From a virus (lineage: Duplodnaviria > Heunggongvirae > Uroviricota > Caudoviricetes), in the IMG/VR virus record IMGVR_UViG_2909246061_000005: a stretch of 32,531 nt of DNA. One strand, written 5' to 3'. Positions 1,239 to 24,820 of this stretch are shown here, piece by piece; position 1 is the first letter of the stretch; each line of letters begins with the position of its first letter. Made by a program: the position numbers and the translations under genes. Under the pieces are notes generated by a model that saw only the letters and a program-made list of their open reading frames with translations, searched no databases and was not told where the DNA came from.

Positions 1239-1814
1239 CTACGGCAGTGCTGGCCATTCAATATCCTGTGAAGTTGACGTATCAACACGGTTCAGCAATA
1301 CCCGATACTTTTTCCATGCTTCCAGCAACGAGATTTCTTCCTCCGTTGCAATTTCCAGATCTGCAGCATCCTGAAGCGGCGCAATATGCTCACTGGCTAC
1401 CTGCATTAGGTTGTTTTTTGTTTCTTCCGCCTCCCGGATCCGGAACAGTTTTTCTGCTTCCGTATCCTTCACCCAGGCTGTGCCGTTCCACTTCTGAAAC
1501 TCCCCTTCCGGCGATAACCAGGTAACATTTTCCGGTAACGGACCGAGTTCAGAAATAAATAACGCGTCGCCGGAAGCCACGTCATAAACCGTTTTACCCC
1601 GATGATCTTCAACGAGATGCCACGATGCCTCATCACTGTTGAAAACAGCCACGAAGCCTGCCGGAATATCTGGCGGTGCAATATCGGTACTGTTTGCTGG
1701 CAGACCTGTATGAGGCGGAATATATGCATCACCTTCACCAATAAATTCATTAGTTCCGGCCAGCAGATTATAAATTGTTATGGTCCGTGGTTGTTCACTC
1801 ATTCTGAATACCAT
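1239..1814 (-). CDS. tfaR: Tail fibre assembly protein (Tfa chaperone)
   Basis: 191 aa, begins [21 protein letters not shown] as in Tfa proteins; start codon overlaps the stf stop by 1 nt (TAATG). Confidence 0.85.
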
Positions 1815-4800
1815 TATGCAAGCCTCACAATATAGTTAAATGCGATGTTTTTGACGGTGTTTTCCGCGTTACCAGCAGCGTTAACGGTGATGGTGTGTCC
1901 ATGTGAGCCAATCGCAACGGAGTGCGTATGAGCACCAATACCGACAGTATGTGCATGTGCGCCTGCGCTTGCAGCAGTGCCGGACAGCGAGTGGGTATGA
2001 GCACCATCTGATGATGTCTTCCCTGCATTACGAGTCTGGCCACTACCGCTTGTTGTGCTCATAATCCCCGCGCTTAGATTTGAAATCGCGGTATAACCAT
2101 TAGGGAAAATGCTCGTGTTCGTGCCACCAAATGCACCGGAACTCTTGTGTTGGTGCGCACCGGCACTATTTGCAGTCCCGCTAATACTATGGGTATGCGC
2201 CCCGGTGTTATTCGTGGATTTGGTTCCGTAATCAAACGACGATGTGTTTTTCGTCCCCAAATCCGTACTGGATGCGCTGGCGCTGTGGGTGTGCGATTTA
2301 ATGCCGTCCTGTTCCTGAGATAATACGGCTCGACCACTGGCAGGTTTGCCCTTAATCGTCCAGCCACGCATATCAGGGATCACGCCTGACGGATAAGCGG
2401 CTGCAAGTTTTGGGTAGGCAGATTTGTCAAAAGTCTGCCCCTGCATCAGGGCATAACCAGACGGAACGGTATCTGATGGCCACGGGATTGGTGCACCGAC
2501 TGGATAAAACTCTGCAGGAGGATGAGCCGAGGTGTAAAGCTGCGCCCAACCACTTTCAAAACCATAACCGTCTCTTGAAGAACGGTAGAACAGACCACCA
2601 TTTCTGTAATGCGCCTTCATCTGCAAGGTCCGGCAACTTCCGACTCCGGTATAGAAGTTAACCAGAATATAGCTGTCGCCAGAGCGGGTGACATTGTAAG
2701 CGCCTGATTCGGCATTCCATGGAACGCCCCCATCCGCATCGGCATACGCATCCGTTGCTCTTCTGGCAAAAGCAGCCACATGCGCGGCGGTTAAAGTGAT
2801 ATCAGTAGAACCATCAAATGGAACACCGGATATTTTTCTTGCAGTCTGAAGTTTTGTAGCAGTTGCAGCATTACCAGTGGTGTTCTGATTACCCGTAGTG
2901 TTTACACCTGGAAGGTTAATATTTGCAGAACCGTCGAAAACAACTCCACCGATAGATCTTGCCGTCTGCAATTTCGTGGCTGTACTTGCATTACCATTCA
3001 ATGAACCAGTTAATCCACCTGTAACAGACAACGGACCTGAAACTGTTCCTCCGGTTGTTGGCAGTGCTCCAATATCTAACGGCGTCGGTTTCTGATGTGT
3101 GCTATACATCGTATAAACAACACCATCGGTAACGCTGGAAGGCTTACTCGCTGAATATGTTGGCGATGTATAAATAGAAACTGTCGCATTTGCAGTACAA
3201 TCCCAATGGATATTTACACGAGTCGCATAATTGCCAATCTCAACGTAAATATCATATGTATCGCCGGATGTGTTGATCCAGGCGAAATTCGTTAATCCGA
3301 CGGCTGTACGCTTCCACAAAGCCCCGGTAATTCCTTTGGGGTTTCCATTGCCTGCTCGTAGAACCAGTTCTGAAATGCCTGCCTGATGTGGGGAACCGAC
3401 GTTGTAACCAGCGCCACCAATCAATGCGATGTAAACGATGGAACTCGCTTGTGGCATGGTAACCGTAGCCAGTTTGAACCACCCAGCCCCGCCAGAGAAA
3501 GACATCGTTACTGAATTTAAAGTACCAATATCTTTCGGCGTTAATGTTATATCCGCAGTCAGTGCTTTTCCGTTAACTTTTCGGTTAGATGGCACCCTGC
3601 TATTCGCATTGTCATTGGCTGCTTTAACTGCTTTTGGCGTTGCGGCCAGCGATTCACTGGTGCTATCAACAGCACTGCTAAGTTTCACAACACCTTTAGT
3701 TGTAAGGCTTGCGTCTTCCATCGCAACTGCACCGGCAATCTCTTCAGCACGATCAGCAGCAGCTTCCGCACGGGTCGCAGCGGATTCAGCAGCAGTTTTG
3801 CTCTGAGATGCTGCCGTCGCACTGCCTGCCGCCTCTGTTGCTTTCGTGGATGCCGTCGTGGCGCTGCCCTTCGCTGCTGACGCCTGTCTGGTCGCCTCAT
3901 CTTTTGAAGCAGACGCAGATGATGCCGATGACGCTGCCGAACTGGCGGACGATGCGGCTGCCGTTTTTGAGGATTCTGCACGGGTTTCCGACGCTTTCGC
4001 ATTCGTTTCGGATGTCTTCGCTGCGGAAGCAGACCTCGCTGCTGCGCTGGCCTGTACAGCGGCTTCGCCAGCCTTCGTTGTGGCTGTTGAAGCGGACGAT
4101 GCAGCACTTTCTGCCGATTTTCCGGCGGCGGTGGCACTGGCTGAGGCCTGCCCGGCACTTGTTGACGCGGCACTGGCAGACGACGCAGCCGCTGTTTTTG
4201 AGCCTGCCGCAGCTGAGGCACTCTGTCCCGCTGCCGTTTCAGAAGCCTTGGCGTTCGTCTCGGACGTTTTTGCCGCCTTCGCAGAATTTGCTGCCGCCGT
4301 TGCCGAGGAAGCGGCACTACTGGCGCTTGATGATGCGTTCGTTTCTGATGATTTTGCCGCCTCTTTTGAAGCCGACGCATCCCGTGCTGAAGTGGCTGCT
4401 TCTGACGCTTTCGTGGTCGCGGTGGATGCAGAAGTGGCTGCTGATTGTTGTGACGCTGCCGCATTCGTTTCTGACGTTTTCGCCGCAGCGGCACTGGTAG
4501 CCGCCGCGCTTTTTGAGGACTCTGCAGCGGCAGCACTTTTTGATGCCTCAGAGGCTTTTGCTGATGCCGTTCCTGCGCTGGAAAAAGCCTCCTGAGCCGA
4601 CGTCGCGGCCTGTCCGGCTGACGTGCTGGCTGCACGTGCTGAGCCTGCAGCATCAGTCGCATGGGTTGCCGCCTCACGGGCAGATGTGCTGGCATCACTG
4701 GCTGACTTCTTCGCGGCTGCCGTGTTCTGTGCCACTGCGGACGCGTTACGCGCCACCTCTTCCACCATCAGTTCAAAACGTCGCAATGCCTCCGGACGGG

Positions 4801-5092
4801 CATCATCCTCCGTCATGGCACCGAGAAAATCATTCAGCGTACCGGGTTGAGAATCTTCATACACGGTGATGGTCCCGGCATGTGACGGCGGGAATCCCTC
4901 CACCAACAGAATAACGCTGTACTGACCGTACTCAACGTCCATGCTGTAACGCCCGGCTTCATCTGGATTTTCTGAGGCCAGCGTGTTCACCACCACCGTG
5001 GTGCTGTTACGTTTTGCTTTCAGCTGGATTGTGCAGTTCTGTACCGGTTTTCCTGTGCCGTCTTTCAGTACACCTGAAATCTTTACTGCCAT
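1814..5092 (-). CDS. stfR: Side tail fibre protein (Stf)
   Basis: Begins [20 protein letters not shown] at the ATG at 5092 (the track's GTG at 5098 adds 2 codons); SD GGGGTG upstream; long Ala/Ser/Thr-rich repeat region; His-rich HxH repeats and conserved [12 protein letters not shown]-terminus. Confidence 0.85.
3697..4747 (-). repeat. In-frame low-complexity tandem repeats (Ala/Ser/Thr-rich, recurring KTSETNA and SASxA motifs) inside stf
   Basis: Protein residues about 115-465 are repetitive; the repeat creates long spurious ORFs in other frames on both strands. Confidence 0.8.
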
Positions 5093-5100
5093 ATTCACCC

Positions 5101-5130
5101 CACAAAAAAGCCCGCCTGAACCGGCGGGCT
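5101..5130 (-). terminator. Intrinsic terminator-like hairpin about 10 nt upstream of the stf RBS
   Basis: Minus strand reads AGCCCGCC-GGTTCA-GGCGGGCT followed by TTTTTT, then GTGGGGTGAAT-ATG of stf. Confidence 0.5.
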
Positions 5131-5159
5131 GTCATAACACTGTGTTAAGTGATCATGTG

Positions 5160-5336
5160 TTACTCCTGAGTTTTCCAGCCCATAGCCTTCCAGTTGTCAA
5201 CTTCATCAGGATGAACATTAGCGATAGTTGGTGCGCCGGGAAACATCTGATAATCGGTCACCATAACCACTAACTCAATTTGCGTTTTTTGTGCGGCTTC
5301 ACGCTGTGCTCTTTGCTCTTTAGTTAATCCGGCCAT
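5160..5336 (-). CDS. Small hypothetical protein (58 aa) between the capsid-like gene and stf
   Basis: ATG at 5336 preceded by GGGGGG (short 3-nt spacing); translation MAGLTKEQRAQREAAQKTQIELVVMVTDYQMFPGAPTIANVHPDEVDNWKAMGWKTQE has balanced composition; bracketed by two terminator-like hairpins; absent from the ORF track because it is under 60 aa. Confidence 0.3.
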   Translation of the reverse strand: MAGLTKEQRAQREAAQKTQIELVVMVTDYQMFPGAPTIANVHPDEVDNWKAMGWKTQE

Positions 5337-5347
5337 ATGCCCCCCAT

Positions 5348-5368
5348 TAAAAATGGGGCCGAAGCCCC
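5348..5368 (-). terminator. Intrinsic terminator-like hairpin downstream of the capsid-like gene
   Basis: Minus strand reads GGGGC-TTCG-GCCCC followed by ATTTTTA, about 10 nt after the stop at 5379. Confidence 0.45.
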
Positions 5369-5378
5369 GTTTGAATGT

Positions 5379-6518
5379 TTAACCAAGAATCAGACAACCA
5401 TGTGCCGGCTTCACTGATGAAACACCCCATGCCAGTCCAACTTCATAGCGCACCTGGCGATACTGACGATACAGTGCAATCTGGAACGTAATCCCTGAAA
5501 TCGGGTCCGTAACATTCATTACATCATCAGCATTATCGCCACCTTCCGGCATTGCCGGAGTACGGGATGCCAGCAGAAACGCGTTGCGATCAAACGCCAT
5601 ATTTGCCGTAAAGGCCCCAACAACTGTGATGGCAGTATCATCGGCCAGATCCTGACGCAGTCCGGGCGCTGCAAGAGTAATCAGATTGCTGGTCGCTGCT
5701 GCCACAACATACTTATTCGGATCACCAGCGAACGTAACAATCTGACCTGCAGAAATACTCCCCGAACCAGTATCAATGGAAATAAGAACATCGCCTTCTT
5801 TTTTCTCTCCATTCACGAGATAACCAGTTGCAGCAACCTTTGGCGCTCGTTTCACACCTGCCGAACTGTGAATATTGAATCCCTCCAGACGCCCCAACAC
5901 GCCCTCACGCAGTAGCTGTTCAGTGCCGGATTCATTCACTTTAAACAATACAGACTGTTTTCCGCGCAAATTAGCAATGGCAGTGGAGCCAAGCACCATC
6001 TGCAGATCGGTTGTCGGTGCGCCGTTATCCTCCAGAACCTGACGAGCCAGAGCAGCATCAGAAAGATCATCTTTAACACCAAACGGCGTTGTCCCTGCGG
6101 TTCCCACGGCGCGGGAAGCACCGAAATACAACGCACCAAGATCAGCCTCAACCTCGTTTGCAAGGGCGCGAAAAGCCTGCTTGAACTGATCAGCCAGAAT
6201 GGTGTTGTAAGTCCCTGAAGGGCCAAGAGCCAGTTGTTCTTCACCATTCCATTTAACCGGTGCCATTTTGGATTTAGTAATTTTTACATCAACAGTGCCA
6301 ATATTTTGATCACCGGTATTCGGAGCTGACGGCCCCGGTACGATATCTTCGGTTTTCGCCTCAGGCGCAACTGGCGCGGTTACCGTCTGATCTTTTGCTG
6401 CGGCGTCAGCTTTTGCGTTTTTTGCTACCGCAGGGATAAAACCTACCTGCTCACGGGATACAACATCCAGGGCGGTATAAATAGTCGGGATCAACCCGGT
6501 CAGGGTATTTCCAGCCAT
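5379..6518 (-). CDS. Putative major capsid (coat) protein, P22-coat-like family
   Basis: 379 aa from the ATG at 6518 (SD TAAGGAA 9 nt upstream; the track's start at 6590 lacks an RBS and would overlap the ParB-like gene). Local matches by eye to recalled P22 coat (AFRALANEVEADLG vs AARKLANNVELKVA; C-terminal ISGITFQIALY.. vs ISTLSGLCRIALWYG). Homology not verified. Confidence 0.45.
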   Translation of the reverse strand: MAGNTLTGLIPTIYTALDVVSREQVGFIPAVAKNAKADAAAKDQTVTAPVAPEAKTEDIVPGPSAPNTGDQNIGTVDVKITKSKMAPVKWNGEEQLALGPSGTYNTILADQFKQAFRALANEVEADLGALYFGASRAVGTAGTTPFGVKDDLSDAALARQVLEDNGAPTTDLQMVLGSTAIANLRGKQSVLFKVNESGTEQLLREGVLGRLEGFNIHSSAGVKRAPKVAATGYLVNGEKKEGDVLISIDTGSGSISAGQIVTFAGDPNKYVVAAATSNLITLAAPGLRQDLADDTAITVVGAFTANMAFDRNAFLLASRTPAMPEGGDNADDVMNVTDPISGITFQIALYRQYRQVRYEVGLAWGVSSVKPAHGCLILG

Positions 6519-6570
6519 AATTAAATATTCCTTAAAAATTTGCGTAATTGTGAATAGATGGAGTAATGAG

Positions 6571-6933
6571 CTATCCAGCCCTGACAGCATTGATTAGGTC
6601 CGACAGCTCCATCCGCAACAGATCTTCATCCCAGCCAGCATTCATCGGCAGGCGATTATCTGCCAGGCGGTACGCCTTTTTCTGCTCATCCGTCAGGCCA
6701 GACAGAACAATGACCGGAACAGAATCCATTTTGAGCATTTCAGCCGCCATAACACGACCGTGACCCGCAATAATTTCGCCCTTTTCGTCAATCAGCACCG
6801 GATTAGTCCAGCCGAATTGCTTAATACTTTCTACCAGTTGTGCCACCTGCTCAGGGCTGTGCGTCCTGGCGTTGTGCGCATACGGTGACAATTCTTGTAA
6901 TGGGCGATAGACTATCTTTAATTTCTCGCTCAT
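6571..6933 (-). CDS. ynaK: ParB-like nuclease domain protein (N-terminal domain only)
   Basis: 120 aa with ParB N-terminal-like motifs (GHGRVMAA, LADNRL); sits next to trkG as ynaK does in Rac; short length suggests truncation. Confidence 0.6.
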   Translation of the reverse strand: MSEKLKIVYRPLQELSPYAHNARTHSPEQVAQLVESIKQFGWTNPVLIDEKGEIIAGHGRVMAAEMLKMDSVPVIVLSGLTDEQKKAYRLADNRLPMNAGWDEDLLRMELSDLINAVRAG

Positions 6934-7070
6934 ACAGCCTTGCTTTATGAATAAAACGCACCCCAGCAGCCAGTGCTACTGGGGACGGAGGGGTTGCTGG
7001 TAAAGTTAGGTATTGGATCAATGAGTGAGTCAACATAATATTAAACTCACAATTATAAATTAGCCATATA

Positions 7071-8528
7071 TTAGGAGCGCCAAAAAAAACCTGAAAACAA
7101 TATAATAACAGGATAAATTTCAAGGCGACCAAGAATCATAGCTATGCACATTAAACATTTTGCAATGTCATTAAGCACTCCGAATGACGATGCAGTAGCC
7201 CCAAAACCTAATCCCATATTATTAATACATGCAGCCACTGTTGCAAATGATGTAAGAAAATCATATCCCATACCATTTAACACCAGTATAAAAAACACCG
7301 TGAAGAGAGTATAAAGAAAAAAGAAACTCCATACAGACCTCATTACACGATCTGTAACTATCTTCCCTCCTACATTTACACTCAACAACGCTCTGGGATG
7401 AGAAAGCTGATTTATCTCGTGTTTGCTTTGTTTGAAAAGTATAAGAAATCGAAGTGACTTAATTCCACCACAAGTTGAACCTATACATCCCCCAAAGAAA
7501 CTTGACAACAGCAAAAACACTATCGTGTGCGTGGGCCAACTTGCATAATCCTGCGTAGCTAAACCATTATCAGTGAGCATGGAGCTGGCAAGAAAAAACG
7601 AATGAATAAAACTTCCATGCAAGTCATACATACCTATATGCCAGACCTGGAAAGAGGTAACAATGATCACCCCTAAGGCTATTAACAGAAAGAAACGAAG
7701 TTCAATATCTCTGATTAAAGGTTTTATCGTTTTCCTGCTAATAACAATATACCAAAGAGTGAAGTTGAAAGCCGATAGCAGGGAAAAAGAACCAGCCACC
7801 AGCTCAACCAAATAGTTATTAAAATATCCGATACTCTCGCTATGAGTTGAGAAACCACCAAGCGAAACTGTGGAAATCCCGTGACAAATAGCATCAAACA
7901 AAGGCATTCCTGCAAGTCTATAACAGACAATACAAGCAATACCTAATAAAGAATAAGTTATCCACAGTGTCCGTGACGTATCGGCCAGGCGGGGAGTGAG
8001 TTTGTCATCCTTAAATGGCCCCGGCATTTCTGACTGATAAAGCTTTGCACCACCAATACCCAATAATGGCAATACAGCAACCGCCAGAACAATAACTCCT
8101 AAACCACCTATAAAATTTAACTGTGACCGATAGTACAAATATGCCCGAGGTAATGAACTAACATCATCAATTACAGTTGCTCCTGTTGTTGTTATTCCAG
8201 AAACCCCTTCAAACAGAGCATCAATGAACGTTAAATTAAGTTCTGAGTCAATCCATAAAGGGAATGCACTAATAACAGAAAACAAAATCCAAAACATTAC
8301 AATTATAATAAACCCATCACGGGTACGTAATTGAATGCCAGATTTCTTAGTTGTATACCACGCTCCGCCACCAATGCAAAAAAATATAACGAAAGTTATA
8401 AAGAAAACGAACAGGCTTTTTTCTTTATAAAACAATGCTACAACCATTGGTGGCAACATTGAAAGACTATAGAGCCAAACCAGGAACCCACACATATGAG
8501 TAACAACTCTTACATGAGATGTATTCAT
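7071..8528 (-). CDS. trkG: Trk-system potassium uptake protein TrkG
   Basis: 485 aa from the ATG at 8528 (MNTSHVRVVTHMCGF..); polytopic membrane protein; the track's TTG start adds 6 codons. Confidence 0.9.
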   Translation of the reverse strand: MNTSHVRVVTHMCGFLVWLYSLSMLPPMVVALFYKEKSLFVFFITFVIFFCIGGGAWYTTKKSGIQLRTRDGFIIIVMFWILFSVISAFPLWIDSELNLTFIDALFEGVSGITTTGATVIDDVSSLPRAYLYYRSQLNFIGGLGVIVLAVAVLPLLGIGGAKLYQSEMPGPFKDDKLTPRLADTSRTLWITYSLLGIACIVCYRLAGMPLFDAICHGISTVSLGGFSTHSESIGYFNNYLVELVAGSFSLLSAFNFTLWYIVISRKTIKPLIRDIELRFFLLIALGVIIVTSFQVWHIGMYDLHGSFIHSFFLASSMLTDNGLATQDYASWPTHTIVFLLLSSFFGGCIGSTCGGIKSLRFLILFKQSKHEINQLSHPRALLSVNVGGKIVTDRVMRSVWSFFFLYTLFTVFFILVLNGMGYDFLTSFATVAACINNMGLGFGATASSFGVLNDIAKCLMCIAMILGRLEIYPVIILFSGFFWRS

Positions 8529-8665
8529 ATCTAAATATTCTTTCAATTATAACCACCTTGCTGCAATATTATGATTATACTGTATAAAATTTAACTCCTC
8601 TTAGATCTTACTTCACTGTTCCTTATGAAACAATCATCAAAATGAATCATATTGTAGTTAAGATT

Positions 8666-9130
8666 TTACTTTAAACACTGCTCGGTTATGTATTGCTGAG
8701 CACCTTCAAGTTGGGCCTGCATCATTACCAGTCGTTCCCGGAGGGTGAAATAATCCCGTTCAGCGGTGTCTGCCAGTCGGGGGGAGGCTGCATTATCCAC
8801 GCCGGAGGCGGTGGTGGCTTCACGCACTGACTGACAGACTGCTTTGATGTGCAACCGACGACGACCAGCGGCAACATCATCACGCAGAACATCATTTTCA
8901 GCTTTCGCATCAGCTAACTCCTTCGTGTATTTTGCATCGAGCGCAGCAACATCACGCTGACGCATCTGCATGTCAGTAATTGCCGCGTTCGCCAGCTTCA
9001 GTTCTCTGGCATTTTTGTCGCGCTGTTCTTTGTAGGCGATGGCGTTATCACGGTAATGATTAACACCCCATGACAGGCAGACGACGATGCAGATAACCAG
9101 AGCGGAGATAATCGCGGTTACTCTGTTCAT
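8666..9130 (-). CDS. rzpR: Rz-like i-spanin
   Basis: Start [12 protein letters not shown] at the ATG at 9130, overlapping the endolysin stop (ATGA); N-terminal TM segment and coiled-coil periplasmic domain. Confidence 0.85.
8725..8910 (-). CDS. rzoR: Rz1-like o-spanin lipoprotein, embedded in Rz in the +1 frame
   Basis: 61 aa, lipobox VVVGC, proline-rich stretch ([15 protein letters not shown]); fully nested within Rz. Confidence 0.8.
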
Positions 9131-9624
9131 TGCTGACCCCACAAACAGATTTCACGCTCAATCTCACGACGAGTCATGAGACCTTTCCATTGCTTACCGC
9201 CAGCATATGTCCAGCGACGTAGCTGATCACATGCGCCTTTGATATCGCCCTGGTTTATTTTGCGAAGAAGCGTCGATGTTCTGAAATTGCCAGCACCCAC
9301 GTTGTAAACGAATGAGTAAAGAGCGCCGCGCGTTGTTTCCGGTATATCGACTTTGATGTACGGGTTAATTTGTCTGGCGACCGTGGCAAGGTCTTTATTC
9401 AAGAGTGTTTTGCATTCTGCTTTGGTATACGTTTTACCGAGCATGATGTCTTTTCCTGTATGCCCGTGACATACAGTCCATACACCAACAATATCTTTGT
9501 ATGGTATGTAGCTGACACCTTCCAGACCATCGTTACCACTTGGGCCAGTGATTAACACTGATGCTATAGCAATTGCTCCGCCACCAATAGCAGCAGCAAC
9601 GACTTTTCGTAATGATGGAGGCAT
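9127..9624 (-). CDS. SAR endolysin (phage-21 R-type lysozyme)
   Basis: 165 aa; N-terminal Gly/Ala-rich signal-anchor-release segment ([16 protein letters not shown]) followed by a lysozyme domain; recalled near-identity to R21. Confidence 0.9.
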
Positions 9625-9839
9625 TATTCACCTCTCGCAGCCTTGCGCTTATCTTCTTTAATCTTGAAATAAAGGTTTGTCAGGTACGTCAGCAGGCCAA
9701 ATACCAGACTACCCAGCACACCGATTGCAGCCCACTGTGACGGAGTTACTCTATCGAGCAACTGTAAAAACCAGTAGCCAGCACTGCCTGCGGAGGTGCC
9801 GTAGGCAATGCCTGTTGAAATTTTGTCCATGGATTTCAT
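9624..9839 (-). CDS. Pinholin (S21-type class II holin) with dual-start motif MKSM
   Basis: 71 aa from the ATG at 9839 ([23 protein letters not shown]..); strong SD GGAGGTGA upstream; second in-frame Met at codon 4; stop overlaps the endolysin start (TAATG). The track's GTG at 9896 lacks an RBS. Confidence 0.85.
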
Positions 9840-18325: not shown

Positions 18326-19603
18326 CTATGGTTTTTTATTAGAATCTTCGCCACTAAATAAATTATAATAAATTGATTTTATTAGATATCTGTCAGAATC
18401 TATATGGTCAGCACGAGTAGCATGCTCTAATGTTTCAAATGCTAGGGTTTGTGCGGCTTCAGCAAAAATTCCAGGCCAACCCTTACTCAGCATCGACAGT
18501 CCTTTAAGTACCCTTATCTGAATTTCCCTCATACTGGCACCATCGCGCGCAACAGGTGAGAAAAAGTCTTCAAGTAGATCGTTATTCTGAAGTGGTGCAA
18601 CATGTACAGAAGGATATTTCACTTCTATTTCATCAGATTTATTCTGCGCGTAAGCGGAAAGTATACGTACACCTCTGCCAATGACATCAATGGCGGTTCC
18701 AGGATCGTTCACTGCGGGGGAAAGGGCTCGGCAGGCTATTTCGGCCATGACGCTAAGACAAAATCGGGGGTCCTGAGCAAATGAACGTACATCCGAGACA
18801 ATAATCGTCTCAAGTAAATCGGTGCTGATTGATGACTCCTGGCCCTGACTCAGGTACAAAACTGGCGTGGACGGATGTATGAAACTGCCCGGCTGCGCCA
18901 CGAGGTATACATGACGGGGATCATTGGTCAGCAGCTTGCTGAGTTTCACCATATCAACATATTCAACATAGCCAATCTTTTTCGGATAAACTGCAACCGT
19001 TCCTTTCGGCTGTTCATTGTTCTCAAGCCATGGATATCCGCCGAGACAGGGATTTCTTGCTCTCGCAATAAATGTTTCGATGGCCGCCTGTTCTACTTTT
19101 GCCGTTGTCTCACCAACCCTCCCCAGAGAGGTCAAATGCTGTATCCAGCGAAGCAATGTGATGAGGATTAAGGCAATGACAACCAGTGTTACAATGAATA
19201 AAATGACTCTCCCCCTTTCTCCATAAGCTCCCATATTGAGGGCAATAATCCCTACCAGACTGAAGAGAAAAGAACCGATGAAGGTGGCCAGTACATTTTG
19301 TGTGGTGACGTCTTCAACAACTAAACGAGTAGCTCTGGGAGTCACATTAGTAGTGGCTGAACCGTAGGCTGTGACCATGATGCTCAGCGAAAATGTGGTC
19401 ACTGCCAGCATACTCGATGCCAGTATGTTCAGAATGTTATCGACTGCTTCCGCACCAACCTTCACGGAAACCGACTCAGGTATCATTGATTTAAAAAGAA
19501 TTGATAAAAGGGCCGTTATTATTGCGACAATTGCGAATAACGTTGCCCTGAACCATAGTTTTTTAAATGTCTGCTTCAGCATCCATTTCCAGCGTGAAAT
19601 CAT
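18326..19603 (-). CDS. DUF2254-like membrane protein
   Basis: 425 aa from the ATG at 19603 (SD GAGGGAA); the track start at 19618 lacks an RBS; N-terminal multi-TM region plus soluble C-terminal domain; family call is recalled. Confidence 0.6.
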   Translation of the reverse strand: MISRWKWMLKQTFKKLWFRATLFAIVAIITALLSILFKSMIPESVSVKVGAEAVDNILNILASSMLAVTTFSLSIMVTAYGSATTNVTPRATRLVVEDVTTQNVLATFIGSFLFSLVGIIALNMGAYGERGRVILFIVTLVVIALILITLLRWIQHLTSLGRVGETTAKVEQAAIETFIARARNPCLGGYPWLENNEQPKGTVAVYPKKIGYVEYVDMVKLSKLLTNDPRHVYLVAQPGSFIHPSTPVLYLSQGQESSISTDLLETIIVSDVRSFAQDPRFCLSVMAEIACRALSPAVNDPGTAIDVIGRGVRILSAYAQNKSDEIEVKYPSVHVAPLQNNDLLEDFFSPVARDGASMREIQIRVLKGLSMLSKGWPGIFAEAAQTLAFETLEHATRADHIDSDRYLIKSIYYNLFSGEDSNKKP

Positions 19604-19666
19604 TCTGCATTCCCTCATATTGCAGCCGGGATAAATAAATGCCGCCTCTGTGGCGGCATGTTGCTG

Positions 19667-21670
19667 TTAACGAACCAGATGCAGGAAGTGCAGGTGTTTT
19701 TCGTACTGGTCCAGTATGTCATTAATCAGCTGTTCCTGATTCCAGCCCATTACATCATAATTTTGGCCGCCCTCTTTGAGATAGACTTCAGCGCGATAAT
19801 ATCGATGTTGTTCACTCTGCTGCTCATCATTATCCAGCGCAGCGAGCGCGAAGGTCGGTGAGTTATACCCGCGAAGCCTCACTTCATATATATAATTCAG
19901 CTCGTTGCCCAAATCGACTTCAAGGCGAATACGATCCTCGGCGGCGTCACTGATGTGGCTTATCGTTCCCTGCTTGTTAAGTTCCTCCTGAACCAGCGTC
20001 ATGGCGGGTTGGATAATGTCGTCCATAAAACGTTTCACAAGAGAGCGCTTCGGCAAATACGCGATATTGCGTAACCTTCTCTGCCAGGGAATTGGGTTAC
20101 GTGCAGCCGTAGGAGCAATAGTCGCCATGCTAAGGCTTTCACGCTTGGTCAAATCCCGACGCAGGGCTTTTAACAGTCCGTATATGGATATTAATAAGAT
20201 AACTGAGAAGGGCAATGCACTCGCTATCGTTACGGTTTGCAACGCACTCAGCCCCCCTGCGATCAGCAGGGCAATAGCAACAACGCCCATGAGCGATGCC
20301 CAGAAAATTCGCTGCCAGACGGGCGTGTTTGCCACCCCACCTGATGCCAGAGTATCCACAACCATTGCCCCCGAATCAGCAGACGTTACAAAGAAGACGA
20401 TGACCATCGCCATTGCAATGAATGACAGCACGGAAGAGAACGGGAAATGCTCCAGGAAATTAAACAGGGCAAGCGCAACATCCTGCTGAACGGTATTGGC
20501 GAGGTCAGTGGCGCCCTGGTTCATGATGAGATAGATGGCGCTGTTTCCAAACACCGTCATCCACATGAGCGTAAAGCCGGCGGGAACAAACAACACGCCA
20601 GTCACGAACTCACGAATTGTCCTGCCGCGGGAAACGCGTGCAATGAACATACCTACAAACGGCGACCATGAAAGCCACCATCCCCAGTATAATAATGTCC
20701 AGCCCCCCAGCCAGTTGCTCGACTTGGGTTCATACGCGTAAAGGTTGAACGTTTTACTCACCAGTTCCGACAGATAACCACCCGTATTTTCCACAAATGA
20801 CTTCAGCAGAAGCACAGTGGGACCCAGGCACAAGACCAGCGCCAGGAGCAACACCGCCAGGCCCAGATTAAGCTCAGACAGGATGCGTATTCCCTTGTCC
20901 AGGCCGGACACCACCGAAATCGTCGCTAACCCCGTGATGACCACGATCAAAATGACCTGTACCGTTTCATTGATGGGCACGCCGAAAAGATGGTTCAAAC
21001 CGGCATTCACCTGCAATACACCGTAACCCAGCGATGTTGCAACGCCAAAGACAGTGCCTATCACGGCGAAGATATCAACCGCGTGGCCTATAGGCCCGTA
21101 AATGCGATCGCCGATAATGGGATAGAGCGCAGAACGCAGCGTTAAAGGCAGACCGTGACGGTAACTGAAAAAGGCCAGAATCAGCGCCACGATGGCATAA
21201 ATTGCCCATGCGTGCAGACCCCAGTGGAAGAACGTCAGGCGCATGGCTTCCTTCGCTGCCGCAACGGTCTCTGGAGTGCCGACAGGTGGCGAAAGATAAT
21301 GCATCACAGGTTCGGCAACGCCAAAGAACATCAGGCCGATCCCCATCCCTGCCGAAAAAAGCATCGCGAACCAGGAGTGGTAGCTGAAATCAGGCTGCGC
21401 ATGATCTGGGCCCAGCTTTATATCACCGTAACGTGAGAGTCCAAGGAACGTGACGCTCAGTAAAATCAGGGCCACAGCAAGTATGTAGAACCAGCTGGCA
21501 TTCGTGAAGATTTGTTGCTGAAGTAGTTTAAAATTTTTGTCGGCGACATCCGGGAATACGGCGGCAAAGGCGACAAGAAGGAAAATTAGCAAAGCAGATG
21601 TAAAGAATACCGCTTTGTTAATCTGGCTTGTAGACTTCTTTGGGGTTGTATCATTTTCACTCATAATCAT
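19667..21670 (-). CDS. BCCT-family transporter, BetT-like (choline/betaine type)
   Basis: 667 aa; WTLLYWGWWLSWSPFVGMFIARVSRGRTIREFV and C-terminal INDILDQYEKHLHFLHL parallel recalled E. coli BetT motifs. Confidence 0.85.
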   Translation of the reverse strand: MIMSENDTTPKKSTSQINKAVFFTSALLIFLLVAFAAVFPDVADKNFKLLQQQIFTNASWFYILAVALILLSVTFLGLSRYGDIKLGPDHAQPDFSYHSWFAMLFSAGMGIGLMFFGVAEPVMHYLSPPVGTPETVAAAKEAMRLTFFHWGLHAWAIYAIVALILAFFSYRHGLPLTLRSALYPIIGDRIYGPIGHAVDIFAVIGTVFGVATSLGYGVLQVNAGLNHLFGVPINETVQVILIVVITGLATISVVSGLDKGIRILSELNLGLAVLLLALVLCLGPTVLLLKSFVENTGGYLSELVSKTFNLYAYEPKSSNWLGGWTLLYWGWWLSWSPFVGMFIARVSRGRTIREFVTGVLFVPAGFTLMWMTVFGNSAIYLIMNQGATDLANTVQQDVALALFNFLEHFPFSSVLSFIAMAMVIVFFVTSADSGAMVVDTLASGGVANTPVWQRIFWASLMGVVAIALLIAGGLSALQTVTIASALPFSVILLISIYGLLKALRRDLTKRESLSMATIAPTAARNPIPWQRRLRNIAYLPKRSLVKRFMDDIIQPAMTLVQEELNKQGTISHISDAAEDRIRLEVDLGNELNYIYEVRLRGYNSPTFALAALDNDEQQSEQHRYYRAEVYLKEGGQNYDVMGWNQEQLINDILDQYEKHLHFLHLVR

Positions 21671-24329: not shown

Positions 24330-24406
24330 TACCCATAGGTAAACAAAAGTCAATACCCACAGGTTGTTTACCTTGCAGTAATCGCATCTATTATTTACCT
24401 ATGGAC
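24330..24406. promoter_or_regulatory. Operator-like palindromes in the divergent promoter region (TACCCATAGGTA; TACCCACAGGTT; TACCTATGG)
   Basis: Three related 12-bp (half-)palindromes between the Cro-like and repressor genes; the third overlaps the repressor ATG. Confidence 0.6.
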
Positions 24407-24820
24407 AAATATGAATTTAGACGACAGCAACTCATCAAAATTCGTGATGAGAAATGCGATGGTAAAGCGGTTAACGTGGCCAGAAAGATCGGGCGCGAGC
24501 CTTCTTATGTATCAAGAATGTTGTACCCAGAGGGGAAAAAGGGAAAAAAACGGATCGCTGATGATATGGTGGAGATTATCGAAGAGTCCTTTGGGTTACC
24601 CCGGGGATGGATGGATGGTATCGTTTCATCATCAACGAACACAGCCTCCAGTTATGAAACAAGGGTTCTAACGCCACGACAACGTATTTTTTTAGATCTC
24701 TTAGACGAACTGCCAGAAAGTGAAGCGGATAACTTATTAAAAACTCTTGAAGAGAAAAAACAGTATTACAATATGATCTACGAAGAAATCCGTAAAAAGA
24801 AAGCACAAAACGCATCATAG
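24401..24820 (+). CDS. Prophage repressor-like HTH protein (RacR position)
   Basis: 139 aa; HTH (GKAVNVARKIGREPSYVSRML); divergent from the Cro-like gene; flanked on both sides by the same palindromic motif. Confidence 0.6.
   Translation: MDKYEFRRQQLIKIRDEKCDGKAVNVARKIGREPSYVSRMLYPEGKKGKKRIADDMVEIIEESFGLPRGWMDGIVSSSTNTASSYETRVLTPRQRIFLDLLDELPESEADNLLKTLEEKKQYYNMIYEEIRKKKAQNAS

Follow-up and report, generated by a model that had tools for sequence, protein, structure and literature searches.

How does a lambdoid prophage come to carry a lone capsid-like gene and a small open reading frame (ORF) next to its tail fibre gene, with a terminator-like hairpin after each of them? We addressed this question for a 32,531-nt stretch of Escherichia coli DNA (hereafter, the window). 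A preliminary description of the window had reported a 379-aa gene, a 58-aa ORF, stf and two hairpins, all on the minus strand, and we recovered the same layout with the same coordinates. The region contains the following features:

5379-6518, minus strand: predicted major capsid protein gene, full length, 379 aa (ATG at 6518, TAA at 5379; AAGGA 10 nt upstream)
5349-5368, minus strand: hairpin 1 with its U tract (stem-loop 5355-5368), GGGGC-UUCG-GCCCC then A-UUUUU, between the capsid stop codon and the Shine-Dalgarno sequence of ORF58
5160-5336, minus strand: ORF58, conserved small gene, 58 aa (GGGGGG Shine-Dalgarno; phrog_1514, 3.5e-43, full length)
5104-5130, minus strand: hairpin 2 with its U tract (stem-loop 5109-5130), AGCCCGCC-GGUUCA-GGCGGGCU then UUUUU; the T-run ends 11 nt before the stf ATG
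1814-5092, minus strand: stf, side tail fibre, 1092 aa (ATG at 5092; Pfam phage_tail_N, 1e-71, and Collar; RefSeq annotation)
1239-1814, minus strand: tfa, downstream of stf

The mechanical ORF list puts the start of stf at a GTG at 5098.

The window runs from ydfK on one side to intR on the other and is a complete Rac-type cryptic prophage of E. coli. The chromosomal Rac locus of NZ_CP032237.1 is 100% identical to it. In this locus uspF-ynaM-ydfK-pinR...recE are annotated, and the window ends in a 411-aa integrase ORF; the element is bounded by chromosomal genes on the uspF/ydfK side and by intR. The ydfK/ynaE-uspF-ompN neighbourhood at one end and intR at the other correspond to the Rac location. 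The Rac signature genes recE, racC, kilR, sieB, trkG, ynaK, an stfR-type stf, tfaR and pinR are also present (RefSeq annotation of the identical locus, compared with K-12). Rac is a mosaic from which many structural genes are gone, and half of it is missing in more than 50% of strains (PMC5700373). Here the int/xis-side genes, replication genes, a Q-like gene, lysis genes, the capsid gene and stf/tfa are all still in the element. The preliminary description had noted the absence of terminase, portal, scaffold and tail-shaft genes from the region. This held for the whole 32.5-kb element: it contains no terminase, portal, scaffold, connector or tail-shaft genes, and none is contiguous with it. 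An intact prophage would carry terminase, portal, scaffold, connectors, tail tube, tape measure and tip genes; none of these is there, and the element cannot build particles.

The 379-aa protein had been called capsid-like, with its fold proposed as the test, and sequence and structure comparisons agree with this assignment. The protein scores 47.8 bits against Pfam P22_CoatProtein (PF11651, cut-off 24) and matches phrog_283, 'major head protein', over its full length (2e-136); RefSeq names the same CDS 'P22 phage major capsid protein family protein'. A PDB search with the single sequence gave only a spurious match (0.37), and a shallow 16-sequence profile gave none. The family profile built on a 70-sequence alignment (representatives 35-57% identical) found the capsid proteins 8e16 (3e-10) and 8zdh (1e-5). 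Likewise, the AlphaFold pLDDT was 30 on a shallow alignment, and the AF2 model based on the 70 sequences reached a pLDDT of 92.1 and a pTM of 0.89. The best Foldseek match of this model is the P22 gp5 procapsid protein 8i1v_A (E 7e-19, TM 0.70), and its top 17 matches are all coat proteins of P22, CUS-3 or Sf6, with TM up to 0.70. Overall, Pfam, PHROG, profile search and the AF2 model with Foldseek identify the predicted product as a major capsid protein of the P22-coat type with an HK97 fold. The likeness to the P22 gp5 family (HK97 fold with an inserted domain; P22, CUS-3, Sf6) consists of the above-threshold Pfam score and TM values of 0.65-0.70; in contrast, sequence identity is only ~14%, the window protein has 379 aa versus 430 aa, and its gene comes from a siphovirus-type lambdoid module rather than a P22-like podovirus. 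The head genes also differ from those of lambda in being of the P22-coat and not the lambda E/D type. Closer relatives exist: the major head protein of phage HK639 is 75% identical to the window protein, and in HK639 and in full Rac-type modules the homologues sit between a DUF6651 scaffold-position gene and ORF58 with the connectors.

We compared the region with these full modules. In complete Rac-type relatives, which share the backbone of the window, the order is ParB-TerS-TerL-portal-head protein-scaffold-major capsid protein (MCP)-ORF58-connectors-tail genes-J-lom-stf. The prophage of strain L73 has the full module, itself broken by IS elements, and carries identical accessions for the capsid protein (WP_000918487.1), ORF58 (WP_000908084.1, also in CP66-6 and 3PT), tfaR and pinR, together with one identical TolA-like protein. 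ON470581 and ON470595 have the same module order as L73, and the ON4705xx capsid protein is 99.7% identical to that of the window; these 'phages' are prophages predicted from clinical isolates, with viability not proven (10.1101/2022.06.29.498070). HK639, a viable lambdoid phage, has the genes from TerS to the major tail protein in the same order, with scaffold, MCP, hairpin, ORF58 and connectors. All of these keep terminase, portal, head protein, scaffold, connectors and tail genes, whereas the window is without them all. The missing morphogenesis genes fall into two intervals of the relatives that are deleted in the window, at the following positions:

6571-6933, minus strand: ynaK', N-terminal ParB-domain fragment, cut at junction A and followed by 4 new codons (VRAG) and a stop
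6584/6585, minus strand: deletion junction A, ParB codon ~116 joined 66 nt upstream of the capsid ATG; TG microhomology
5146-5156, minus strand: start of the next head-operon gene, 11 nt (ATGATCACTTA), coding in relatives for a 131-aa connector/adaptor-like protein and cut by junction B (alignments with 606R9, 3PT and L73)
5145/5146, minus strand: deletion junction B, joined 11 nt past the lom stop codon; TA microhomology

At junction A, alignment with ON470581 (positions 2561 to 9903) gives a loss of ~7.34 kb, which comprised the ParB C-terminus, two hypothetical genes, TerS, TerL, portal (DUF4055), a head morphogenesis protein and the scaffold (DUF6651). The ParB-like protein of intact relatives has 263 aa. 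The remaining ynaK' matches Pfam ParB_N (2.6e-7) and positions 3-116 of 217 of the phrog_620 profile, aligns with 606R9 parB and K-12 ynaK, and is flagged by RefSeq as 'incomplete, missing C-terminus'. At junction B, ~13.28 kb are gone relative to L73 (19767..6489 of its record), with four connector genes, tail tube, ydaY/G-T chaperones, tape measure, M, L, K, I, J and lom. Megablast breaks coincide with junction A to the base and fall at window position 5147 near junction B. Both junctions are resolved to the base, and on either side the sequence runs collinear with intact relatives, in the same order and orientation. What remains between them is an island of 1.44 kb: the native capsid leader (66 nt), the capsid gene, its 3' hairpin, ORF58 and the first 11 nt of the gene that follows. 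An insertion of the MCP-ORF58 island was considered and rejected because the flanks keep the intact order and because both the 66-nt native leader and the 11 nt of the native downstream gene have been kept. The orphan state of the capsid gene is explained by these two deletions and is nothing special in itself.

Overall, the window is very probably a Rac-type lambdoid E. coli prophage at an intermediate stage of decay, in which two deletions left the capsid gene and ORF58 behind. The order of events that we infer starts from an ancestral late operon with a complete module (ParB, TerS, TerL, portal, head protein, scaffold, MCP, ORF58, connectors, tail genes, J, lom, stf and tfa). Two illegitimate-recombination deletions, each at 2 nt of microhomology, would then have taken ~7.3 kb that preceded the capsid gene and ~13.3 kb that followed ORF58, leaving the 1.44-kb island fused to the ParB fragment on one side and to the lom-stf hairpin and stf on the other.

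A comparison with Rac of K-12 (trkG-ynaK-ydaY-ynaA/tmpR-lomR'::IS5-stfR-tfaR-pinR) fits such decay. The two elements share chromosomal locus, flanks and backbone (recE, racC, kilR, sieB, trkG, a ynaK fragment, stf, tfa, pinR and ydfK/ynaE), both are defective through loss of morphogenesis genes, and both have the identical lom-stf hairpin right before stf. However, their deletion end-points differ. In K-12, ynaK is joined to the tail chaperone gene ydaY, a tape-measure fragment and lomR are kept, and the capsid gene is entirely lost. Q and most of the lysis cassette are likewise missing from K-12, where rzpR is a pseudogene, while the window keeps MCP, ORF58, the Q-like gene and holin/endolysin/Rz/Rz1. 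The immunity region and the cargo (TolA-like genes and a 7-kb island in the window) are different as well.

The retained genes could also suggest a helper-dependent satellite, with its own capsid protein and tail fibre and with terminase, portal and tail borrowed from a co-resident or infecting helper. Capsid-forming phage-inducible islands (cf-PICIs) encode packaging and capsid functions as a coherent set, with only the tails missing. The window resembles them, by their published descriptions, in being a chromosomal element with a capsid gene and without a full set of virion genes, and its int/xis-side, replication, Q-like and lysis genes, MCP and stf/tfa would suit such a lifestyle. However, cf-PICIs have their own small terminase, portal and head-tail connectors besides the capsid protein; of such a set only MCP and ORF58 remain here, the capsid protein being a lone deletion remnant. 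Small terminase, portal, scaffold and head-tail connectors are lacking, the usual pac/cos neighbourhood (TerS region) is deleted, both junctions are simple deletions of an ordinary phage module, and 32.5 kb with 7 kb of cargo is unlike known satellite organisation. We consider a satellite extremely unlikely.

The preliminary description had further seen the capsid gene and ORF58 as wedged between terminators, with expression of stf requiring read-through. Both hairpins consist of a G+C-rich stem-loop followed by a U tract and are predicted intrinsic terminators. A terminator scan recovered both, among 12 sites in 4800-13000 (6.9 +/- 2.8 in shuffled sequences). Hairpin 1 folds with -12.2 kcal/mol (z -1.8), by energy alone only modestly above chance. 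Its sequence is identical in 606R9/3PT, the GGGGC-UUCG-GCCCC hairpin lies 3' of the capsid gene in L73, ON470581/ON470595 and the HK639 head module, and the same stem-loop occupies this place, within different flanks, in HK639 and Klebsiella phage 5 LV-2017. For this hairpin, conservation in relatives is a stronger argument than folding energy, and it points to a native element of the head operon. With its 5-bp stem, hairpin 1 may serve chiefly to stabilise mRNA or to terminate transcription in part. ORF58 behind it is likewise native: it always comes next after a capsid gene of this type, with homologues in HK639_07 (61 aa) and in a Klebsiella phage gene with an internal EQQ repeat.

Hairpin 2 folds with -19.1 kcal/mol (z -2.6), so stf does lie directly downstream of a strong terminator-like hairpin, as had been described. 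An identical hairpin is found in K-12 between lomR and stfR. The lambda version differs by a single G-U change in the stem and in its loop. In lambda and K-12 Rac the hairpin stands at the same distance from stf as here, and the lambda lom-stf (orf-401) hairpin, with the stf ribosome-binding site and start after it, matches the window almost base for base. By sequence, hairpin 2 is the lom-stf intergenic terminator-like hairpin of lambdoid phages. A literature search for a described lom-stf terminator of lambda yielded nothing specific. Neither hairpin, then, is peculiar to this element: hairpin 1 is also found behind the capsid gene in full-module relatives including the viable HK639, and hairpin 2 stands at the same spacing in lambda and K-12 Rac. 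Since both derive from the parent module, the flanking 'terminators' are best read as inherited parts of a lambdoid late operon.

The upstream part of this operon is formed by the following features:

12110-12652, minus strand: Q-like late antiterminator gene, full length, 180 aa (Pfam DUF1133, 2.5e-107)
11999-12109, minus strand: putative late promoter region and first terminator, a tR'-like hairpin AAAAAAACCGC-UUAAU-GCGGUUUUUUU
8666-9839, minus strand: lysis cassette, all intact (holin 9624-9839; endolysin RrrD 9127-9624; Rz 8666-9130; embedded Rz1 8725-8910)
7071-8528, minus strand: trkG cargo gene, between the lysis cassette and ynaK' (annotation)

The Q-like protein matches phrog_753, 'anti-termination protein Q-like' (2e-79), is 94% identical over 180/180 aa to the Q of a relative, and is borderline against Phage_antitermQ (26.1 bits, cut-off 26); a PDB search returned no sequence relative. 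Given DUF1133, the borderline Phage_antitermQ score and the lack of a relative in the PDB, it is not demonstrably of the Q-lambda or the Q21 type. Assignment to the Q21 family was dropped, as the literature offered no link between DUF1133 and Q21 and the PDB no sequence relative. About 80 nt 3' of Q are conserved with the relative 683R6, and beyond them each element has a separate hairpin; that of the window folds with -19.7 kcal/mol (z -5.6) and is followed by a T-run. The comparison yielded no assignable promoter or Q-binding element. The lysis genes have the same lengths as in relatives (RefSeq annotation) and match Pfam Phage_lysis (4e-53) and holin PHROGs; the Rz1 translation shows a VVGC lipobox and a Pro-rich tail. 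The Q-like gene and lysis cassette had been described as intact, and all are indeed full length.

The Q-family gene lies immediately upstream of the late genes, and from holin to tfa all genes, lysis and structural, are on the minus strand, which is the arrangement of a lambdoid Q-antiterminated late operon. As in the pR'-Q system of lambda, the late genes follow, on one strand, a Q-like gene and a putative short terminated leader. In the standard lambdoid design, as outlined in 10.1101/651190, the Q-modified polymerase passes internal terminators, so read-through before stf would be ordinary behaviour rather than a special requirement of this element. A further terminator-like hairpin belongs to trkG (6961-6984, -22.5 kcal/mol, z -4.6). 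A polymerase from the late promoter, once Q-modified, would normally read through such an operon. If Q is made, holin, endolysin and spanins, and then the capsid protein, ORF58 and Stf/Tfa, could be expressed. Between the early genes and Q sits the 7-kb cargo island, whose four antisense genes are included in it; this island may interfere with expression of Q. Judged from its gene content, lysis by the element without particles is plausible.

How common is the orphan state? The same nine of 5426 complete E. coli genomes carry both junction A and junction B: ECCWS199, EC21Z-063, 2017.11.01CC, JSMCR1, ET896, PKF8, PSS-10, LR-27 and E3. These nine were independently assembled, from different hosts and in different laboratories, and both junctions are identical in all of them, which makes an assembly or annotation artefact a practically negligible explanation. 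Strain CP66-6 was rejected as a carrier of junction A; it has a different, in-frame ParB::MCP fusion. Among the 5426 genomes the capsid gene is present in 747 and the matching TerL in 753, their co-occurrence being inferred from these like totals and not genome by genome. With nine two-junction genomes versus 747 capsid carriers, the orphan state accounts for ~1% of carriers. All nine genomes have perfectly intact copies of the capsid ORF, its Shine-Dalgarno sequence and ORF58, which fits neutral decay only if the deletions are recent.

Could this intactness instead reflect domestication? A host might keep MCP, with or without ORF58, against incoming related phages whose Q trans-activates the resident late operon; incoming capsids could be poisoned or mis-sized, or the protein could serve as sensor or decoy for a defence system. 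The ORF and ribosome-binding site show no damage and do not differ from functional copies, the gene lies in a predicted Q-dependent operon with intact Q-like and lysis genes, and several independent deletions end near it. However, the allele is confined to 9/5426 genomes, a scan for a promoter-like site of its own on the minus strand between 5093 and 6590 found none, and the gene has not diverged from phage copies as a long independent life would suggest. Moreover, independent alleles destroy the capsid gene by truncation, fusion or frameshift (ParB::MCP(13-379), TerS::MCP, another N-terminal fusion and a frameshift). Together with the loss in K-12, these damaged alleles give no sign of selection for intactness, and we regard domestication as very unlikely. 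A related idea is that the orphan capsid protein, possibly with ORF58, is expressed through its own Q or that of a superinfecting or co-resident phage and co-assembles, scaffold-less, with incoming coat protein. If true, the protein would act in defence, as a capsid poison or a decoy, or would give rise to chimeric capsids; with the allele rare and damaged versions in other strains, we hold it to be highly improbable. The capsid gene is probably intact because the deletions are recent and missed it by chance, rather than because it does something in its own right. We take the arrangement to reflect neutral prophage decay rather than a designed unit, a real but ordinary feature.

Defective prophages and temperate phages exchange genes, and rescue is known for Rac genes and lambda. 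The island might accordingly have no function in situ and act as a recombination reservoir, rescued by infecting relatives through homologous recombination and so feeding phage mosaicism. The capsid gene is 99-100% identical to those of hundreds of resident prophages, and Rac carries recE/recT-type recombination genes. However, this would be a consequence of any prophage remnant and does not explain the arrangement; as an explanation it seems unlikely.

The kind of feature described here is already known, and the window adds one more allele to the known series of Rac mosaics. For annotators and prophage-prediction tools it carries a warning that a signature of capsid, tail fibre and lysis genes does not equal a viable phage. 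Terminator-like hairpins beside ribosome-binding sites in such remnants would be inherited late-operon punctuation, not new regulation. For lambdoid prophages, the element offers a clean, base-resolved case of how microhomology deletions strip the virion genes while lysis, tail fibre and cargo genes stay.

The stretch at 5000-8600 is 100% identical to chromosomal loci in several complete E. coli genomes. In NZ_CP032237.1, the annotation leads from the flanking uspF-ynaM-ydfK into pinR-tfaR-stf-ORF58-'P22 phage major capsid protein family protein'-ynaK(partial)-trkG, then Rz-RrrD-holin-TolA-like (two genes)-DUF1133-DUF1364-DUF1367-(7-kb cargo)-DUF977 and, further on, ydaT-like, sieB-kilR-ydaE-racC-recE; a 411-aa integrase ORF closes the window. 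In K-12 MG1655, the feature 'cryptic prophage Rac' shows the same gene arrangement (trkG-ynaK-ydaY-ynaA-lomR'::IS5-stfR-tfaR-pinR-ynaE). Judged by position and signature genes, the element is the Rac cryptic prophage locus. The gene in the repressor position (24401-24820, plus strand, opposite the ydaS/ydaT-like genes) encodes 139 aa with no Pfam match; its product is not K-12 RacR, so the immunity region of this Rac variant differs. The whole 32.5 kb lacks terminase, portal, scaffold, connector and tail-shaft genes, which bears out the absences reported in the preliminary description, and since chromosomal genes directly adjoin the element, no morphogenesis genes lie contiguous with it. An intact prophage and a capsid-forming satellite are both ruled out, as packaging genes were tested for and are absent.

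In the capsid-stf region, a 379-aa capsid gene (MCP), a 58-aa small gene (ORF58) and stf remain of the late module, with two hairpins and two deletion joins (junctions A and B) among them.

Features of the capsid-stf region
6585/6584, minus strand: junction A, ParB ...AATGCTG joined to TCAGGGCTGG...; TG common to both sides
6518 (ATG) to 5379 (TAA), minus strand: MCP, ORF of 379 aa; AAGGA 10 nt upstream
5368-5355, minus strand: hairpin 1, GGGGC-UUCG-GCCCC; AUUUUU next
5336-5160, minus strand: ORF58, 58 aa; ribosome-binding site GGGGGG upstream
5146/5145, minus strand: junction B, ATGATCACTTA joined to ACACAGTG...; TA common to both sides
5130-5109, minus strand: hairpin 2, AGCCCGCC-GGUUCA-GGCGGGCU; then UUUUU
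5092, minus strand: stf start; GGGGTG precedes

A consensus terminator scan recovered both hairpins (12 sites in 4800-13000 versus 6.9 ± 2.8 in shuffles), and hairpin 1 folds at –12.2 kcal/mol (z –1.8), hairpin 2 at –19.1 kcal/mol (z –2.6). Reading the ORFs and ribosome-binding sites and scanning and folding the hairpins put all of them where they had been described, so that observation was accurate.

The 379-aa protein scores 47.8 bits against Pfam P22_CoatProtein (cut-off 24), aligns over its whole length with PHROG 283 'major head protein' (2e-136) and shares 75% identity with the HK639 major head protein. HK639, a viable lambdoid phage, is the sole proven phage among the relatives compared; the records labelled 'phage' under ON4705xx are prophages predicted in clinical isolates (10.1101/2022.06.29.498070). 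PDB searches with the single sequence and with a shallow profile returned nothing, and an AlphaFold model from 16 close homologues reached a pLDDT of only 30. A deeper profile of 70 representatives at 35-57% identity matched solved major capsid proteins (8e16, 3e-10; 8zdh, 1e-5), and AlphaFold on this alignment gave pLDDT 92.1 and pTM 0.89. The top 17 Foldseek matches of the model in the PDB were all P22, CUS-3 and Sf6 coat proteins (best E 7e-19, TM up to 0.70). Sequence, predicted fold and synteny thus agree that the gene, earlier called capsid-like, encodes a capsid protein of the P22-coat/HK97 family.

In relatives, the full late module runs trkG, ParB (263 aa), two hypothetical genes, TerS, TerL, portal (DUF4055), head protein, DUF6651 (in the scaffold position), MCP, ORF58, four small connector-type genes, tail tube, ydaY, tape measure, M, L, K, I, J, lom, stf and tfa. 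Strain L73 carries it on the window's backbone, with identical protein accessions for MCP, ORF58, tfaR and pinR and one identical TolA-like protein. At junction A, TCAGGGCTGG... corresponds to sequence that relatives carry 66 nt ahead of the capsid start codon; the loss is 7341 bp as measured in ON470581 (positions 2562-9902), and the cut ParB frame gains four codons before a stop at 6571. At junction B, ATGATCACTTA is the opening 11 nt of the gene that follows ORF58, and ACACAGTG... starts 11 nt past the lom stop codon in K-12 and L73; the loss, measured in L73, is 13,279 bp. Independent megablast breaks (6585 and 5147) fall on the same bases. Insertion of MCP-ORF58 is disfavoured, since gene order and orientation on either side are those of the intact module; a pair of deletions is the far more parsimonious origin of the orphan state. 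In L73 (NZ_CP033378.1, 24613-39228), this Rac backbone with its complete head and tail module is inactivated another way: IS3-family copies sit in TerS, in TerL and around Rz, and a TolA-like gene contains an IS66 element.

Sequence comparison shows both hairpins to be inherited parts of the late operon. Hairpin 1 is identical in full-module relatives, and GGGGC-UUCG-GCCCC also follows the capsid gene in HK639 and Klebsiella phage 5 LV-2017, where the flanking bases differ and T-rich sequence and the ribosome-binding site of ORF58 come next; behind a highly expressed capsid gene, it is most likely a partial terminator or 3' stabiliser. The ORF58 homologue of the Klebsiella phage (4181-4519) is 112 aa long, its conserved N- and C-terminal parts separated by a long perfect (CAGGAACAG)n = (EQQ)n repeat; evidently the middle of this type of small protein can vary. 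Hairpin 2 with the stf ribosome-binding site and start equals the K-12 lomR-stfR spacer base for base and comes close to identity with the lambda lom-orf401 spacer, where the stem has one G-U change and the loop differs. A terminator-like hairpin close to the stf ribosome-binding site is therefore a normal lambdoid arrangement: the layout of a gene wedged between terminators is present, but it is not special to this element.

At least five terminator-like hairpins were found by scan and folding between the Q-like gene and stf (11999-12030, 9948-9965, 6961-6984, 5355-5368 and 5109-5130). Read-through of terminators before and within late genes by Q-modified polymerase is textbook lambdoid behaviour (10.1101/651190; 10.1101/2023.05.14.540688). 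The hairpin at 6961-6984 (minus; –22.5 kcal/mol, z –4.6), directly after trkG and 28 nt ahead of the start of the ParB fragment ynaK', is a predicted further barrier that probably came with the trkG cargo.

The Q-like protein (12110-12652) matches Pfam DUF1133 (2.5e-107), Phage_antitermQ at the borderline and PHROG 753 'Q-like'. It has no sequence relative at E ≤ 0.01 among solved structures, though the PDB holds Q-lambda and Q21 complexes, so homology assigns it to no class (lambda, 21 or 82). As proposed earlier, this gene and the lysis cassette are intact: the Q-like protein is full length, with 94% identity to a relative's copy, and holin, RrrD endolysin, Rz and embedded Rz1 (VVGC lipobox) have the lengths seen in relatives. 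Some 80 nt past the Q-like stop are conserved; beyond them comes a strong hairpin with a T-run that differs from element to element. No promoter or Q-binding element was recognised. Because these genes are intact and morphogenesis genes are absent, cell lysis without particles is possible. Between the replication genes and the DUF1367-YbcO-Q block lies a 7-kb cargo island (14328-21670), four genes of which are antisense to early transcription and may impair Q production after induction. Its content is non-phage (DUF1971, MFS transporter, gamma-glutamylcyclotransferase, LysR regulator, DUF2254, BCCT transporter), and ON470595 carries other cargo at that position (kinase fragment, FtsH-like protein, S8 peptidase). 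Tandem lipoprotein genes (10091-10486 and 10637-11065, minus; lipoboxes VAGC and IIGC) with a TolA C-terminal domain (Pfam 1e-14 and 2e-23; phrog_5772) sit between the Q-like gene's terminator and holin, where relatives have tRNA-Thr/tRNA-Gly. One is a partial tolA pseudogene in RefSeq, yet an open 142-aa ORF. These lipoproteins might imitate TolA domain III, for example excluding Tol-dependent phages or colicins.

We searched 5426 complete E. coli genomes with 121-nt probes across each junction. Full-length matches to both probes came from exactly the same nine genomes. At a coverage of ≥80%, 747 genomes had the capsid gene, most of them with ≥99% identity; TerL of the same module was present in 753; the orphan allele thus makes up ~1% of capsid-gene carriers, as computed from totals and not a per-genome cross-table. 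Other alleles are damaged independently. In CP66-6, stf is gone and the capsid gene is part of an in-frame ParB(1-139)::MCP(13-379) fusion; AH62 has a frameshifted capsid gene, and 3PT retains scaffold-MCP-ORF58-adaptor followed by sitA; K-12 has lost the capsid gene entirely. Database proteins include a TerS N-terminus::MCP fusion and another with an unrelated N-terminal segment. These three fusions and an internal 19-aa duplication are the chimeric capsid genes created by other Rac decay alleles (NZ_CP053723.1, 7300-7520; proteins P0004, P0006, P0107 and P0001). Rac is mosaic, with half of it lost in more than half of strains and stfR, tfaR and pinR retained in >85% (PMC5700373). Neither the 5426 genomes nor the other damaged alleles gave any sign of selection for an intact orphan capsid gene, and we read the probe counts and the independent damage as pointing to neutral decay.

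Overall, the double-deletion allele itself is probably undescribed; the decay behind it is well known. The only non-trivial reading remaining is that the scaffold-less capsid protein would interfere with related phages upon trans-activation of the late operon, which we consider very improbable.
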